A stretch of 22,870 nt of DNA from Promethearchaeota archaeon (GCA_013375475.1 JABXKD010000061.1:1-22870), one strand, 5' to 3'. Shown: positions 17,249 through 22,579, counted from the first letter of the stretch. Notes: generated by a model from the letters alone, not told the origin. Numbers and translations: made by a program.

Positions 17249-17253
17249 GGTGA
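17249..17253 (+). promoter_or_regulatory. Shine-Dalgarno GGTGA for rpo7
   Basis: Archaeal SD core 6 nt upstream of the ATC at 17260. Confidence 0.7.
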
Positions 17254-17259
17254 ATTAAA

Positions 17260-17865
17260 ATCTTCAAAATCTACGCCCTCACAAGTAAAGTGGAAATCCC
17301 CCCCTTTCTATTCGACCAACCTAAGACGATCAGTGCTAGAATTATTCTTAGCGAAGAATATGAAGGAATAATTACACGGGATTATGGTTTCATTGTTGCT
17401 ATTGTTGAAATTCTTAGTGTAGGTCATGGGATCATTATTCCTGGGAATGCCAATACGTTTCATCAAGTTGAGTTTTCCGTTCTATCCTTCAAACCAAACC
17501 TTGGAGAAGTAGTGGAAGGAGATATAGTTGAGTTAGTAGATTTTGGAGCCTTTTGCCGACTAGGACCGTTGGATGGTTTGGTTCATGTCTCCCAAATTTG
17601 CGATGATTATATATCATACGAACAAGTCGGTAATCGATTTATTGGCAAAGAAACTGGAAAAATACTTGAAGTGAATAATGAGGTAAGGGCTAAAGTAATC
17701 GCAGTTTCATTAGGCACTGGACGAAGCGGTAAGTTAGGTTTAACAATGCGTCAAAAGTTTTTAGGAAAATACGATTGGATTGAAGCTGATGTCGAAGAAG
17801 AGTACGCTAGTAAAGAGGGGAAAAAATCTAAGGAGACAGATGAAGAAGGAGAAATTGAGGAATAA
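17260..17865 (+). CDS. rpo7: DNA-directed RNA polymerase subunit Rpo7 (E'); inferred ATC start, 201 aa
   Basis: (M)FKIYALTSKVEIPP...YEG...GEVVEG...FGAF..LGPLDGLVHVSQI.DD (S1 domain)...LTMRQKFLGK.DWI. The track's GTG start at 17290 would remove the conserved first beta-strand. Confidence 0.93.
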   Translation: MFKIYALTSKVEIPPFLFDQPKTISARIILSEEYEGIITRDYGFIVAIVEILSVGHGIIIPGNANTFHQVEFSVLSFKPNLGEVVEGDIVELVDFGAFCRLGPLDGLVHVSQICDDYISYEQVGNRFIGKETGKILEVNNEVRAKVIAVSLGTGRSGKLGLTMRQKFLGKYDWIEADVEEEYASKEGKKSKETDEEGEIEE

Positions 17866-17900
17866 AAATTAATTAGAGAAACCTTTAGTGAAAATCATCA

Positions 17901-18095
17901 ATGAAAAAACTTGAAAAAGCCTGTAAAAATTGTCACCTAATAACAAAAAGCCAAACAGTTTGTCCAAAATGTAAAACTCATAGTCTTAGTGATGATTATA
18001 CTGGCGAAGTTATAATAATTGATCCAAGGAATTCAGAAATGGCAAATTATTTAAAAATTCATTTTCCAGGTAAGTATGCTCTAAGAGTGCGCTAA
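17901..18095 (+). CDS. spt4: Transcription elongation factor Spt4 (RpoE'')
   Basis: KACKNC...CPKC...S.DYTG.VIIIDP.NSEMA...PGKYALRVR; follows rpo7. Confidence 0.95.
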   Translation: MKKLEKACKNCHLITKSQTVCPKCKTHSLSDDYTGEVIIIDPRNSEMANYLKIHFPGKYALRVR

Positions 18096-18129
18096 TCTAA
18101 AGAAAAATTAGGAAGATAAAGCACTATTA

Positions 18130-18711
18130 TCATTTCATCATTTCTATAAACTTTTTTACTGCTTTTTGTATTTTTTTTTCGACATTCACCATAACAATGC
18201 CCTCAGGAATTGTTTTCTTTGAATCAGTTATTGGGGGTTGGCCATAAAACACTAAACTTTTTGTTCTTTCACTGAGGGGAATGCTAAGGACTAAGGGTAA
18301 TACAAGTAAATCTTCTTCACCCATAGTTATTTTGAGAAGAGTTACTTTATCAGAACTTACAATATCGTTTAAAAGGTTAAAACTCTCTCTCTGAATTCCT
18401 CCTTGAGGGTTTTCAAATTCTATGATCTCCTCGAAAAATTCTTCAGCTTCGATTTTAATTTGATCTCTTTGAGTTTTTTCATCAATTATGCAGAGTTTGA
18501 TGAATTTTTTTAGAAAATCTTTTGCAAGAAAATCTTGGGTAACAATATCTCCTACTAGGTAAATTTTAACTTCAAGATCTGATTTTAAAAAAGCTTTTAC
18601 CGCCTTTTCAACTTCAAGTATAGTCTTGTTTCTCGTCCCCGCATATAATTTCCCCAACGGTTGAGAAAACTTATGTCTCTCAGCCTCGGGAACTTTTAAA
18701 TTTTCATCCAT
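18130..18711 (-). CDS. DUF359 family GTP-dependent dephospho-CoA kinase
   Basis: PLGKL, VGDIVT, IIDEKTQR, NPQGGI, GEEDLLVLP, YGQP..EGIV motifs; usual position between spt4 and rps24e. Confidence 0.88.
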   Translation of the reverse strand: MDENLKVPEAERHKFSQPLGKLYAGTRNKTILEVEKAVKAFLKSDLEVKIYLVGDIVTQDFLAKDFLKKFIKLCIIDEKTQRDQIKIEAEEFFEEIIEFENPQGGIQRESFNLLNDIVSSDKVTLLKITMGEEDLLVLPLVLSIPLSERTKSLVFYGQPPITDSKKTIPEGIVMVNVEKKIQKAVKKFIEMMK

Positions 18712-18717
18712 CCAATC

Positions 18718-18933
18718 TCAATCCATTGTTGTTTTTTTTGCCTTAAAGTAAAGATTAACCGTTAAAATGAAAAGTGTTACCCATAAAAATAAACTTACAA
18801 TATACAAAGTAAAGTAAATACCTACTACTATATTCTCTAGTACTAGAAAGATAATAAACATAAAAATAAGTAACAGTATTTCAATAACCATCATGATTCT
18901 TGCTTTCATGAGATAATTTTTAAAATCAGTCAT
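18718..18933 (-). CDS. Small two-TM membrane protein, hypothetical
   Basis: 71 aa with two hydrophobic helices; ATG start; stop 6 nt before the DUF359 ATG, so likely co-transcribed. Confidence 0.6.
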   Translation of the reverse strand: MTDFKNYLMKARIMMVIEILLLIFMFIIFLVLENIVVGIYFTLYIVSLFLWVTLFILTVNLYFKAKKTTMD

Positions 18934-19049
18934 TTAATTATATTAAAAAACCAAAATTTTATTTTTTACTGTTCTTTAATCTTTTATAACTCAGAATTAT
19001 CTTTAAATTAACTGATTAACTGAGAAAAATCGTTGTAAGAAGGTTCGAA

Positions 19050-19409
19050 ATGTCGTTTACTATTGAAATATTAGAAGAAAAGAAAAATCCGTTAATAGAT
19101 CGAAACGAAATAAAATTTAGGATCGAGCATTTTAACGAAAGCACGCCAAATAGGTTAGAAATAAAGAAGAAAATTGCAGCACTGAAGAATTCTAACGAAA
19201 AATTTACTATCATTAGAAAAATTCAAACTCATTTTGGGGGTGCTTACGATGTAGGTTTAGCAAATATTTACGAGGATGCTAAAGAACTTCAATTCTACGA
19301 GCCTTTCCACATTCAAGTAAGAAACTTACCAATAAATACGCGATCAGAAATTTACAAACTAAAAAAAAGAAAAGAACCTTACTCGCACTTATTTGAATAC
19401 GAAAAATAA
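19050..19409 (+). CDS. rps24e: 30S ribosomal protein S24e (eS24)
   Basis: EEKKNPLIDRNEI.F.IEH..STPNR.EI...T.FG.....G.ANIY...EP.HI..RN. Confidence 0.95.
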   Translation: MSFTIEILEEKKNPLIDRNEIKFRIEHFNESTPNRLEIKKKIAALKNSNEKFTIIRKIQTHFGGAYDVGLANIYEDAKELQFYEPFHIQVRNLPINTRSEIYKLKKRKEPYSHLFEYEK

Positions 19410-19441
19410 AGTACAATAATTAATAATAAAAATGAAAACTT

Positions 19442-19663
19442 ATGACAAACGCATCCAAATATTATAAGGTTGAAGATGGAAAATTAGAAAGGACTCATAG
19501 AGCATGTCCAAAGTGCGGACCTTCGTTTTATCTCGCAGATCATTATGATAGATCATCTTGCGGAAAATGCGGTTACACTGTATTTAAGAGAAAAACCAAG
19601 AAGGGAGCCGCTACTGTTGCCCGAAGTAGAAGAGCACCCAGAAAGCGCACGAAGTCGACATAG
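19442..19663 (+). CDS. rps27ae: 30S ribosomal protein S27ae (eS31), not ubiquitin-fused, with basic C-terminal tail
   Basis: YYKVE.GKL.R..R.CPKCGP..LADH.DR..CGKCGYT. Confidence 0.95.
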
Positions 19664-19675
19664 AATTAAAAAAAC

Positions 19676-19703
19676 ATTTCTCACTTTTTCACTGTTTTCT
19701 TTT
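19676..19703 (+). terminator. Putative T-rich archaeal terminator after rps27ae
   Basis: Successive T-tracts (TTTCTCACTTTTTCACTGTTTTCTTTT) just after the stop. Confidence 0.35.
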
Positions 19704-19747
19704 AACTCAATATATTATTAATGCTATATGGATTTTAGGTGAAATCT

Positions 19748-20770
19748 ATGAGTGTAAAAAACAAGCTTGCTCTTGGTATAGAATCCACAGCACATACTTG
19801 GAGTGTAGGTATTATTGATTTTAGTGGTAATGTTATTGGCCTCGCAAACGATATGTTTATCCCCGCGAAGGGAGGACTCCATCCTGTATTAGTGAGAGAA
19901 CAACACTTAAACAATTTTATGGGAATAATAAATAAGGCTTTATCAGAAGCTTCAATTTCAATTAGAGATATTGATTTAATCGCATTCAGTAAAAGTCCTG
20001 GTTTAGGGCCAATATTAAAAATTGGTGCTCAAGTTTCGAGATTGTTAAGTCAATTATTAAAAATACCCATTGTCGCTGTTAATCACTGTATTGCTCACAT
20101 AGAAATCGGGAGACTAATGTGCGAAATTGAAGACCCACTCACCTTATATGTGTCTGGGGGAAATACGATAATTAGTGCGTATGAATCTGGACGGTATCAA
20201 ATTTTCGGAGAAACTCTAGATATCCCTATTGGTAATTTAATTGATTCATTTGCGAGAGATATTGGAATGCCTCATCCCGGTGGACCAAAAGTCGAAAAAT
20301 TGGCCAAAGACTCGTCGAAATATTTATCCTTACCATATATTGTGAAAGGCATGGACTTATCATTTTCAGGGCTCTATACTGCTGCCAAAAGATTATTAGA
20401 ATCTAAAGATTATAACAAAAAATATGATTTGAGTGATGTGGCTAATTCACTTCAAGAAACTGCATTTGCTATGCTCACTGAAGTTACAGAGAGAGCTTTA
20501 GCTCACACGGGAAAAAAAGAAGTCTTATTAACCGGGGGTGTGGCTGCTAATAAAAGATTACAAGAAATGATCAAATACATTAGTAAGGAACATGGTGCTA
20601 GATATGAGGTCGTTCCGTTAAAATACTCTGGAGATAATGGCGCAATGATTGGATGGGCAGGAATTCTAAGATATAACGCTACAGGCGGGCATACCATATC
20701 AGATACTCAAATTAATCCCAAAGAAAGAATGGATCAAATTAGTATTCCTTGGAGAGAAGGTGGTGCTTAA
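19748..20770 (+). CDS. kae1: KEOPS N6-threonylcarbamoyladenosine synthase Kae1
   Basis: LGIESTAHT, GGLHP, SPGLGP, VNHCIAHIE, LYVSGGNT, GETLDI, VKGMDLSFSG, GGVAAN, DNGAMI. ATG at 19748 lies 5 nt after AGGTGA; the track's GTG at 19739 is inside that SD. Confidence 0.97.
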   Translation: MSVKNKLALGIESTAHTWSVGIIDFSGNVIGLANDMFIPAKGGLHPVLVREQHLNNFMGIINKALSEASISIRDIDLIAFSKSPGLGPILKIGAQVSRLLSQLLKIPIVAVNHCIAHIEIGRLMCEIEDPLTLYVSGGNTIISAYESGRYQIFGETLDIPIGNLIDSFARDIGMPHPGGPKVEKLAKDSSKYLSLPYIVKGMDLSFSGLYTAAKRLLESKDYNKKYDLSDVANSLQETAFAMLTEVTERALAHTGKKEVLLTGGVAANKRLQEMIKYISKEHGARYEVVPLKYSGDNGAMIGWAGILRYNATGGHTISDTQINPKERMDQISIPWREGGA

Positions 20771-21449
20771 AATAACATCCAACGATATAGTTATGGAAAA
20801 AGTTATTCATAAAGGCGCTGAAGCAAGTCTTATTTACGGTCATTGGTTTGGAAAGGAAGTTATATTTAAACATCGTATCCCCAAAGAATATCGTATAGAA
20901 CAAATTGATAAAAAGCTAAGGGATAATAGAACTCGAAACGAGGCTAAAGCATTGATAAGAGTTAAAAAATATGGTGTAAAAGTCCCTCAAGTTTATGAAA
21001 TTGACACTAAATCTTCAATCATTGTGATGAAGTATATTGAAGGCGAGAAATTAAAGGAAGCTTTAAATTCCATATCAAACGAGAAAAAGGTGCACTATTT
21101 AAAAGAATTAGGCAAAAACATTGCACTCTTACATAAAAATGGACATGTTCACGGGGATATCACTACAAGTAACGTAATTATAACAAATTCTCAAGATATT
21201 TTCATTATTGATTTTGGTCTTCACGATTATTCTGATTATATCGAAGATAAAAGCACTGATTTACACTTGTTTAAAAGAGTATTAATATCATCCCATGGAA
21301 ATGATTTTATTATATGCTTTGAAGCTTTTCTGGAAGGATATCGTGAAGGGTATGGAACGGATAAGATACATGAGTGTGAAGAAATTGTAAAAAATGTTTC
21401 AATTATCGAAACAAGAGGGCGCTACATTAAAAAGGAAGATAGAATTTAA
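20760..21449 (+). CDS. bud32: KEOPS kinase Bud32
   Basis: KGAEA, K.RIPK.YR...D..LR..RT..EA, HGDITTSN, IDFGL, EDKS.DLHL, RGRY; overlaps the kae1 end; exact start uncertain. Confidence 0.95.
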   Translation: MVLKITSNDIVMEKVIHKGAEASLIYGHWFGKEVIFKHRIPKEYRIEQIDKKLRDNRTRNEAKALIRVKKYGVKVPQVYEIDTKSSIIVMKYIEGEKLKEALNSISNEKKVHYLKELGKNIALLHKNGHVHGDITTSNVIITNSQDIFIIDFGLHDYSDYIEDKSTDLHLFKRVLISSHGNDFIICFEAFLEGYREGYGTDKIHECEEIVKNVSIIETRGRYIKKEDRI

Positions 21450-21725
21450 TTGAATTTAAAGTAAAATTTTTTCAATTGACCTTAAATTTTTGACATTAAT
21501 TGTTCATTTAATTGATAAAAACATCAAAATTATTTACATCTGGCTTAGAACTCTTTAAATGCTGCTAAAATCAGAGAGATAATTTTATATACAAGTTTAA
21601 CTTATATTTTATTATCAAAAAGTTGGAATTAGTTAAGGGCTAACAATAATAGATCGGTTGTACTATTACTTGATCCACCTTTCTGAACCTATAATTAAAA
21701 ATTAATAATTTTAGTGAGATTAAAA

Positions 21726-21926
21726 TTGCCGAATCCTAATAAAGAGAAGAAACCAGCAATGCAAAATATTACTATTAACATTCCTGATATATATGATGTT
21801 AACATTCAAAAACTCATCAAAATGAAAGTTGTTCCTAGTCGCTCAGAGGCAATTAGAACTGCCTTAAGGGAATTTTTTCGTACTGAATATGAACACTTAC
21901 AATTATTAGGATTTTTTGACGAGTAG
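21726..21926 (+). CDS. Ribbon-helix-helix (CopG/MetJ-like) transcriptional regulator
   Basis: MQNITINIP....IQKL......SRSEAIRTALREFF. Start likely TTG 21726; alternatives are GTG 21714 or the internal ATG. Confidence 0.85.
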   Translation: MPNPNKEKKPAMQNITINIPDIYDVNIQKLIKMKVVPSRSEAIRTALREFFRTEYEHLQLLGFFDE

Positions 21927-21947
21927 AACCAAAAAAAATTAAAATTA

Positions 21948-22193
21948 TTATCTTCGTTTTCGTATTTTTCTTGCTTCTCTTTCTACTTCTCTTAAGATAA
22001 CAATATCACTAACTTGAATGGGACCCTTAACATTTCTGGTTAAAATTCGGTTTCTATCCGGGCCTTCAAGGATTCTCACCTTAATTTGATTAATCTCGCC
22101 TGTTAAACCGGTTCTTCCAACTATCTGAATGACTTCAGCGGGAACTGAAAAATCCTGTTCGGTTTTTCCTTTTGATTTATCTATTTTTGCTAA
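21948..22193 (-). CDS. rps28e: 30S ribosomal protein S28e (eS28), 81 aa; inferred TTA start; not in ORF track
   Basis: Hand translation: (L/M)[80 protein letters not shown]. It has the eS28 motifs GRTG, RNVKGP and EREAR and lies directly after rpl7ae, as in other archaea. Confidence 0.95.
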
Positions 22194-22199
22194 GGTTTT

Positions 22200-22204
22200 T
22201 CACC
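22200..22204 (-). promoter_or_regulatory. Shine-Dalgarno GGTGA for rps28e
   Basis: Minus strand GGTGA-AAAACC-TTA; same 6-nt spacing as at rpo7. Confidence 0.7.
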
Positions 22205-22210
22205 AGATAG

Positions 22211-22579
22211 TTATTTTATTGCAGCTACCTTCTTTATAATATCTTCTAATTCTCGATCGTTTCCAGTGCCCACATTTTCAATTGCGATTGCAGAAGAAGC
22301 AACATTGATGCGAGCTGAATTCCCTAATTCCTTTTTCGTTGAAACATAACAAAAAGGAATACTCTTTTCTTCGCAAAGTAATGGAATGTGAAATAAAATC
22401 TCGGGAGGGGTTACGTCTTCTGCCATAATAACCAGTTTTGCCAAACTTCTCTCGATTGATTTTGTAACCTCATTCATTCCTTTTCTAAGTTTAGAATCGC
22501 GGGTGGAAGCTACTTTATCTAAAAAACTCTTAATTCCGTTTTTTAGATCGTCCGGAATTTTAAATTTTATATAACTCAT
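22211..22579 (-). CDS. rpl7ae: 50S ribosomal protein L7Ae (eL8)
   Basis: MSYIKF..P...KLRKGMNEVTKSIER..AKLVIMAEDVTPPEI..HIPLLCEEK.IP...KKELG. ATG at 22579 preferred over the track's TTG at 22594. Confidence 0.96.
   Translation of the reverse strand: MSYIKFKIPDDLKNGIKSFLDKVASTRDSKLRKGMNEVTKSIERSLAKLVIMAEDVTPPEILFHIPLLCEEKSIPFCYVSTKKELGNSARINVASSAIAIENVGTGNDRELEDIIKKVAAIK

Follow-up and report, generated by a model that had tools for sequence, protein, structure and literature searches.

Starts led by a Shine-Dalgarno (SD) sequence at AUU, AUA, AUC or CUG are known from bacteria, where they are exemplified by infC (encoding IF3) and pcnB of Escherichia coli. Here we analyse a similar arrangement in an archaeon, found in rpo7 and rps28e, the genes of the RNA polymerase subunit Rpo7/E' and of ribosomal protein S28e, on a stretch of 22,870 nucleotides (nt) from a Promethearchaeota archaeon (GCA_013375475.1, JABXKD010000061.1:1-22870). 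This stretch, hereafter the window, is the whole 22.9-kb contig C246 of a metagenome-assembled genome (MAG) of 3.92 Mb in 288 contigs with 32.5% G+C (G000), which belongs to a Loki-type genus of the Promethearchaeia (Asgard). Among the approximately 25 plausible genes of the window, rpo7 and rps28e are the only ones without a canonical start codon (ATG, GTG or TTG). The comparison of start positions between genomes makes it highly probable that near-cognate initiation led by the SD, practised as a habit of the genus, explains both genes.

For archaea, the relevant section of a published review gives AUG, GUG and UUG as the only start codons and judges SDs, from annotated starts, not to be prevalent in the cultured Lokiarchaeon (PMC7531240). 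Ribosome profiling of Haloferax volcanii returned about 30% near-cognate codons among the putative alternative initiation sites, which the authors set aside in the part of their article that treats these sites (PMC7261190). Regarding initiation factors, aIF1 destabilises initiation complexes on non-AUG mRNA according to the pertinent passages of PMC6237735, where eIF1 is also described as limiting its own synthesis via a poor start (Ivanov et al., 2010, as cited in PMC6237735).

A reading made from the sequence alone had placed GGTGA and 6 nt ahead of a non-canonical codon in both genes, ATC in rpo7 and TTA in rps28e, with the TGA of GGTGA in frame, and had noticed the same SD ahead of a normal ATG in kae1 (AGGTGA and 5 nt). 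All three arrangements are exact by coordinates (Table 1). The rpo7 frame opens at 17254 and encodes domains that are complete in Pfam, SHS2_Rpb7-N at residues 10-62 (profile positions 3-55 of 57) and S1 at residues 78-154. Relatives were searched in 40 genomes, 24 from the same genus and 16 from other families of the order, and for rpo7 a wider set was used, comprising 78 of 80 species loci from a public genome collection. The ATC aligns with Met1 of the orthologues, and the codon at this position is ATT in 15, ATC in three and ATG in four of the 22 genus loci in which the start is covered (three loci without start coverage are left out of this count). The close relatives are thus not always canonical, ATT or ATC being present in 18 of 22, which supports the proposal that ATC is the start. 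The same codon in the other families of the order is ATG in three loci, TTG in one and ATA in one (n = 5; the ATA belongs to G034), and over the 78 species loci it is ATG in 50, ATT in 20, ATC in three, ATA in one, GTG in three and TTG in one. An upstream in-frame canonical codon without an intervening stop exists in 3 of the 24 loci with ATT, ATC or ATA. Moreover, GGTG lies at most 14 nt upstream in 22 of 23 loci with these codons, against 5 of 50 ATG loci, which mostly carry GGTA upstream. The weaker codon therefore goes with the stronger SD, in a comparison where kinship among the genomes makes the loci non-independent, and the p-value therefore overstates the association between codon and GGTG. 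Taken together, these alignments indicate that rpo7 very probably starts at AUC and that near-cognate starts are used across the genus.

The rps28e gene shows a related situation with a different codon. The S28e domain is complete (Pfam Ribosomal_S28e at residues 17-77, profile positions 4-64 of 64), and the first canonical in-frame codon, a GTG at 22079, lies in the middle of it. Six nt after the SD, the 25 genus loci have TTG (15), GTG (2) or TTA (8). Because TTG or GTG occupies the same codon in 17 of the 25, the ancestral TTG was lost in a subclade without replacement; TTA is one base from this TTG and two bases from ATG. The TTA is invariant in all eight genomes of the subclade (G000, G014, G012, G002, G024, G011, G008 and G004), six of which have no canonical codon ahead of the domain, while G008 and G004 have an ATG three codons later. 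This ATG falls at the position of an ATA in G000, which is ACA in G011 and encodes an Ile that is conserved in TTG-start species too. An ATC immediately ahead of the TTA, 3 nt from the SD, is present in six of the eight loci, G000 not being among them. The layout of L7Ae stop, GGTGA and six further nt is kept in the eight TTA genomes as well as in the TTG-start relatives L039-L042.

Other species' genomes retain both arrangements, so the pattern is more than chance and not an error. In the Logan collection, where the evidence consists of contigs and not of reads, a contig of run X1, possibly the source sample, covers 21757-22267 with 0 differences to the window, and no indel occurs at either site among the matches listed; a read error or an indel, which would have undone the sequence-only reading, does not account for these starts. 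Contigs of the RNA run X13 cover parts of the stretch outside both starts. From the codon alignments, the start of S28e would be either the TTA, which has the right position and two mismatches, or the AUA, which has one mismatch and lies 15 nt from the SD. UUA is a candidate that we hold with some doubt, slightly below an even chance.

The 3' end of the 16S rRNA, ...GGATCACCTCCT on contigs C222 and C154, is complementary to GGTGA-type SDs, and the k-mers GGTGA, AGGTG, GAGGT and GGAGG peak 4-9 nt upstream of 4111 first canonical starts in G000, a range that includes the distance of 6 nt seen in rpo7 and rps28e. Near-cognate starts were then counted over the whole genome among in-frame codons lying at least six codons upstream of the first canonical start in open reading frames (ORFs) of at least 100 codons, an SD match being a run of at least 5 or at least 6 located 5-8 nt ahead of the codon. 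With runs of at least 5, ATT, ATC, ATA, ACG and CTG follow an SD in 86/4578 cases and other codons in 289/28939 (odds ratio (OR) 1.9, p = 7e-7). The enrichment is 33/4578 vs 53/28939 with runs of at least 6 (OR 4.0, p = 1e-8), where ACG alone reaches 8/239. Control codons composed only of A and T (AAA, AAT, TTA, TTT, TAT) give 88/8738 and 11/8738 for the two thresholds, and several of the hits for other codons merely adjoin a near-cognate start. TTA alone (20/1730) and GTA (5/491) stay at background behind SDs in G000, without enrichment, which does not favour TTA as a start codon as it had been proposed. The excess amounts to approximately 25-40 genes, among them uL15, uS8, PheT, GatB and ThrC, and is a lower bound, since the count passes over genes that are short, such as S28e, or that have a canonical codon nearby. 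The expectation of many more cases genome-wide is therefore confirmed, at a frequency well below the two in 25 genes implied by the window; these counts suggest that near-cognate starts are used in roughly 1% of genes or slightly more.

Domain positions agree with these counts. In 20 of the 86 candidates, chosen by eye for recognisable N-termini and thus a biased choice, the Pfam model starts at profile position 1-3 ahead of the first canonical codon in 13. The supported cases start at ATA (Pop5, uS8, PheT B1 and a RagA-like GTPase), ATT (a Ras-like GTPase, DeoC aldolase and Metallophos_2), ACG (Radical_SAM, SMC_N, Thr_synth_N of threonine synthase and PIN_6), CTG (GatB_N) and ATC (a ferredoxin, Fer4), and canonical starts would instead delete P-loops, Fe-S motifs and other such elements. 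Furthermore, near-cognate and canonical codons interchange at one position behind the same SD: the first codon of uL15 is ATT in three and ATA in one of 24 genus loci, the rest having ATG; that of uS8 is ATA in 10, ATG in four, TTG in 10 and GTG in one of 25; that of ThrC is ACG in four and ATG in eight of 12; and that of GatB is CTG in seven, TTG in eight, ATA in three, ATT in one, GTG in one and ATG in two of 22. It had also been predicted that gene callers would truncate or miss such genes. Indeed, calls restricted to canonical codons leave 43 amino acids (aa) of S28e, remove 10 aa from Rpo7 and return no ORF of at least 40 aa at the aIF1 locus of G000.

Separately, uS8 matches in two pieces in G004, G003, G023 and G015 (loci L134-L137), with stop codons between or inside them; the pieces span residues 1-48 or 1-69 and about 17/37/47-127, and an insertion, an intron-like element or a frameshift may split the gene in these four genus members.

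The extent of this habit was examined in two further genomes. G017, a distant member of the same genus (793 kb sampled, 30.2% G+C), repeats the enrichment, with 21/797 vs 61/4584 for SD runs of at least 5 (p = 0.007) and 11/797 vs 8/4584 for runs of at least 6 (OR 8, p = 1.7e-5). Its cases are all ATT or ATA, and PheT and a DsrE-like gene are near-cognate in G000 too. In contrast, no enrichment is found in G032, a single-contig genome from another family (1.2 Mb sampled, 31.2% G+C), with 12/1073 vs 73/7165 for runs of at least 5 (p = 0.43) and 1/1073 vs 17/7165 for runs of at least 6; the difference between G000 and G032 at the latter threshold has p = 0.014. SD-led first ATGs are equally common in both (99/634 in G032, 320/2564 in G000). 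The absence of enrichment in G032, against its presence in G000 and G017, points to a habit of the genus or family and not of the whole order. The lineage-wide habit that had been suggested thus holds for the genus, given the replication in G017 and the orthologues over 24 genus genomes, but not for all Lokiarchaeia. AT pressure alone was considered and rejected as an explanation, as G032 at 31.2% G+C is unenriched while G000 at 32.5% and G017 at 30.2% are enriched. Isolated near-cognate cases do occur in other families, namely the rpo7 ATA of G034, an ATT in ThrC of G035 and one ATT in G032. This sole strong G032 candidate (C1, about 926,344; L348, plus strand, offset 6344) has GGTGA, 6 nt and ATT, in a frame of 172 codons whose first canonical codon lies 91 codons in.

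The gene of aIF1, a factor that polices start sites, is itself among those that lack a canonical start in this genus. In all 15 genus loci with the start covered, there is no ATG, GTG or TTG ahead of the N-terminal zinc knuckle; canonical codons begin no earlier than codon 18, and in most loci no earlier than codon 43. The frame opens right after an invariant aaaGGTTGTGA, and codon 4 is an invariant ATT, 9 nt after the GTGA. The GTG overlapping this TGA opens a mini-ORF of five codons, whose TAA overlaps the ATT. In genus g5, from another family, the layout recurs, the codon overlapping the TGA being ATG or TTG; two extra aIF1 copies in the genus-mates G005 and G007 begin at an in-frame GTG, and the 10 other outgroup loci start at TTG (5), GTG (2) or ATG (3). 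With the Pfam model, the aIF1 gene was not found in seven of the 24 genus-mates (G017, G018, G023, G010, G013, G024 and G004), and a search with the G000 protein gave no match in the five of these seven that were searched. Its neighbours are missing or poorly matched in the genomes tested (a 145-aa gene was not found, and a 307-aa neighbour has only 31-36% identity), so the region seems absent from these 82-100% complete assemblies, and we infer no loss.

Relaxed discrimination by aIF1 and aIF2 had been offered as a possible cause of these starts; the sequences of aIF1 and of the initiator tRNA give it no support. Compared with the outgroups, the aIF1 protein has only five genus-specific substitutions, all conservative, and the initiator tRNA, located by pattern in seven of the 24 genus-mates, shows A1, the anticodon CAT and all three G-C pairs, with an anticodon arm identical to that of other families. 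In G000, no initiator tRNA (CAT) was found by ARAGORN with and without introns, by a motif scan or among 36 matches to the Rfam tRNA model. At L474, L475, L476, L478, L473 and L472 (in G005, G016, G020, G009, G012 and G037), the initiator tRNA has an insertion in the T-arm region, probably an intron, because of which ARAGORN misses it. In G005, G016, G020 and G002, the initiator tRNA gene shares a contig with aIF1, at a distance of about 25 kb.

These observations are consistent with a mechanism in which the duplex between SD and anti-SD would place the non-canonical codon in the P site, both genes being intact and translated. The AUC of rpo7 would presumably pair, with a single mismatch, to the CAU anticodon of the ordinary initiator Met-tRNA. 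In S28e, after the loss of the ancestral UUG, initiation would take place at UUA in the same place or at AUA three codons on, possibly assisted by ribosomes terminating on L7Ae, 6 nt upstream of the SD. Across the genus, about 1% or more of the genes would start at AUU, AUA, AUC, ACG or CUG behind a good SD, at codons where relatives have AUG, GUG or UUG, with the weak codon tending to accompany a stronger SD. Finally, with no canonical start of its own, aIF1, the rejector of non-AUG starts, could limit its own synthesis in a loop of the infC/eIF1 type that would keep stringency low. An infC-like feedback loop on aIF1 is plausible from the layout of the gene.

Could the site be fixed by the SD so firmly that codons with two mismatches, UUA and GUA, also start, giving an NUA/NUG set with stringency kept low by an aIF1 that limits itself via AUU? 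A second gene in G000, an amidohydrolase (C18:4658, L440), shows GGTGA, 6 nt and TTA; the TGA is again in frame, and no canonical start precedes the metal-binding DAHLH motif of the protein. The codon six nt after the SD is ATA in the orthologues of five species, TTA in G000 and G011 (with an ATG two codons after it in G011), and GTA in G014 and G024, which have ATC or ATT 3 nt after the SD; the remaining orthologues have ATG without this SD. A conserved ATT further downstream weighs against an NUA start in this gene, and overall we consider this extension unlikely. If it is true, the strict AUG selection of eukaryotes would have a natural low-fidelity counterpart in this Asgard lineage.

Other explanations differ in how many of these genes they could cover. 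Termination-reinitiation, in which ribosomes finishing L7Ae would stay on the mRNA, held by the SD, with the demand on the codon so relaxed that UUA or the nearby AUA suffices, is suggested for S28e by the conserved layout of the gene pair and by the TTA, invariant in all eight loci while not serving as a start codon in general. However, no upstream gene ends near rpo7, aIF1 or the C18 amidohydrolase, and coupling is therefore not the general rule; we see it as a rather unlikely account, limited to one gene, that would complement SD-led near-cognate initiation. Another possibility is that translation begins at the GTG inside GGTGA (in aIF1, at the GTG, ATG or TTG that overlaps the TGA) and reaches the main frame by a +1 frameshift or by reinitiating once the mini-ORF has ended. 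In rpo7, S28e and aIF1, a GTG does overlap the in-frame TGA one base out of frame; in G000, five A follow the GTG of S28e and six A that of aIF1, and in aIF1 the GTG frame is always the five-codon ORF ending on the ATT. Yet this GTG, being itself the SD, has no SD of its own, the A runs are missing from S28e of G024 and G011 and from aIF1 of G022, G015 and G006, and other near-cognate genes have SDs free of NTG, such as GGAGGT at GatB and GAGGT at ThrC. The 7-nt spacer of rpo7 differs in nearly every species, with no conserved shift or slippery site. This route is accordingly very improbable, and a programmed +1 frameshift of the prfB type was rejected on the variable spacer, the lack of a conserved slippery site and the lack of an SD ahead of the GTG.

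An altered or second initiator tRNA, with another anticodon or a modified C34, could decode AUH and perhaps UUA and GUA, which would suit the predominance of AUA, AUU and AUC in the near-cognate set and the ATA, TTA and GTA of the amidohydrolase. The canonical initiator tRNA of the seven genus-mates argues against it, as do the ACG and CTG starts, which fit a general tolerance of one mismatch, and we regard this alternative as most unlikely. The least probable of the explanations is that the proteins are shorter, starting from the next canonical codon, or that the genes are pseudogenes or assembly errors. The source is a MAG, and Rpo7 begun at the GTG of codon 11 would keep most of its SHS2 domain. 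This GTG is not conserved (relatives have GTA, GTC, TGT, ATC or ATT), it has no SD, and the 10 residues preceding it are conserved at the protein level among genus relatives, while S28e offers no canonical codon until halfway through its domain. Each gene is essential and present in one copy, many species whose genomes come from different samples carry the same codons, and loose ends in Logan from runs X1 and X4, which belong to two studies, carry the 5' end ATT-TTT-AAG of a sister species. Sequencing error and truncated proteins were rejected on the conservation across species and on the position of the S28e domain.

Several points nevertheless weigh against SD-led near-cognate initiation as the explanation of both genes, or limit how far it reaches. 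For all these starts, both the codon used and the residue that opens the protein are deduced from sequence. By Pfam alone, a start at GTG codon 11 would cost Rpo7 only about three profile positions, and 7 of the 20 candidates checked by Pfam are ambiguous. In S28e, UUA has two mismatches to AUG and, as counted above, is unenriched behind SDs, and the AUA lies beyond the 4-9 nt usual in this genome. The ATT of aIF1 is at the edge of this range and is overlapped by the GTG mini-ORF. The contrast between families relies on one partly sampled outgroup genome. Finally, the MAG has 6.4% contamination, which fits the rRNA end on contig C263, one of three small-subunit rRNA 3' ends in G000 (C263, C154 and C222); this end adjoins tRNA-Ile and tRNA-Ala genes and looks bacterial.

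Two other features of the assembly concern tRNA genes: G000 has 4-6 genes for tRNA-Gln, also suggesting mixed origin, and in the tRNA gene at C154:219-297 ten N lie exactly across the anticodon loop. Fusion of kae1 and bud32 is known in some archaea. In the window, these are separate genes, the kae1 stop (20768-20770) lying inside the bud32 open frame within 20760-20795, with GTG 20760, GTG 20763 or ATG 20793 as possible bud32 starts.

Table 1. Start-site features of rpo7, rps28e and kae1 with adjoining genes in the window, and the aIF1 gene of the same MAG
Feature	Position	Strand	Remark
rpo7 SD, GGTGA	17249..17253	+	in-frame TGA (17251-17253) closes the frame upstream
rpo7 probable near-cognate start, ATC	17260..17262	+	6 nt (17254-17259) after GGTGA; aligned with the first codon of orthologues
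rpo7 (RNA polymerase subunit Rpo7/E') coding sequence	17260..17865	+	201 codons and TAA (17863-17865)
First canonical codon in rpo7 frame, GTG (codon 11), not the start	17290..17292	+	without SD (run 1)
spt4/rpoE''	17901..18095	+	normal ATG; downstream partner of rpo7; Pfam Spt4
kae1 AGGTGA, 5 nt, ATG	19737..19750	+	AGGTGA 19737-19742, ATG 19748; SD run 6; Pfam TsaD
rps28e coding sequence counted from TTA	21948..22193	-	81 codons and TAA (21950..21948)
rps28e alternative candidate start, ATA	22182..22184	-	15 nt after GGTGA; only near-cognate codon preceding the S28e domain
rps28e candidate start, TTA	22191..22193	-	6 nt after GGTGA; position of the genus TTG/GTG start
rps28e SD, GGTGA	22200..22204	-	TGA (22202..22200) in frame; 6 nt past the L7Ae stop
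rpl7ae	22211..22579	-	upstream gene of the L7Ae-S28e pair; ATG at 22579, stop 22213..22211; Pfam Ribosomal_L7Ae
aIF1/SUI1 gene (PF01253)	G000:C234:645-983 (L422)		behind its own AT-rich intergenic region

These results matter for the use made of such genomes, as the search for eukaryote-like proteins in Asgard genomes relies on gene calls limited to ATG, GTG and TTG. Applied to this genus, these calls omit S28e and aIF1 entirely and shorten Rpo7, uL15, uS8, PheT, GatB, small GTPases and others, often with the loss of catalytic or nucleotide-binding motifs. The results also bear on the evolution of start-codon stringency on the archaeal side of eukaryote origins: eukaryote-type aIF1, aIF1A and aIF2 work here together with SDs and seem to tolerate AUH, ACG and CUG as starts of core genes, and the proofreading factor aIF1 would stand behind a weak start, as do IF3 and eIF1. 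Two families of the same order with equal G+C offer a natural comparison for what sets this stringency.

The mechanism itself, near-cognate initiation behind an SD, is known. New here are its unusual density, the core machinery affected, its limitation to a lineage and its occurrence in an organism with eukaryote-type initiation factors; in the literature searched, with supplements outside the scope, we found no description of near-cognate starts in Asgard archaea or of an aIF1 without a canonical start. The textbook archaeal set shares with these genes the positioning assisted by SDs of the GGUGA type, complementary to the 16S 3' end. Regarding the low prevalence of SDs given for the cultured Lokiarchaeon in the section cited from PMC7531240, SD-led ATGs are as common in 1.2 Mb of G032, from another family, as in G000. 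The near-cognate sites of Haloferax, as presented in the cited part of PMC7261190, are alternative or extra, whereas conserved essential genes would depend here on a near-cognate codon as their sole possible start.

The likeness is closest to infC and pcnB, which also have a conserved codon with one mismatch behind a good SD at the normal start position, and whose weak start lowers or tunes output. As in infC, the fidelity factor's own gene, here aIF1, bears a weak start. Unlike the bacterial cases, which number two to four, those described here would number in the tens per genome, genes for RNA polymerase and ribosomal proteins among them, in an archaeon with eukaryote-type aIF1, aIF1A and aIF2; ACG is also used, and the feedback proposed here is deduced from the genes. 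There is also a likeness to eIF1, the orthologue of aIF1, which likewise monitors start sites and is itself made from a poor start. In the passages on eIF1 cited above, the weakness lies in the sequence context of an AUG, while in aIF1 of this genus, as far as the sequence tells, it would lie in the codon itself.

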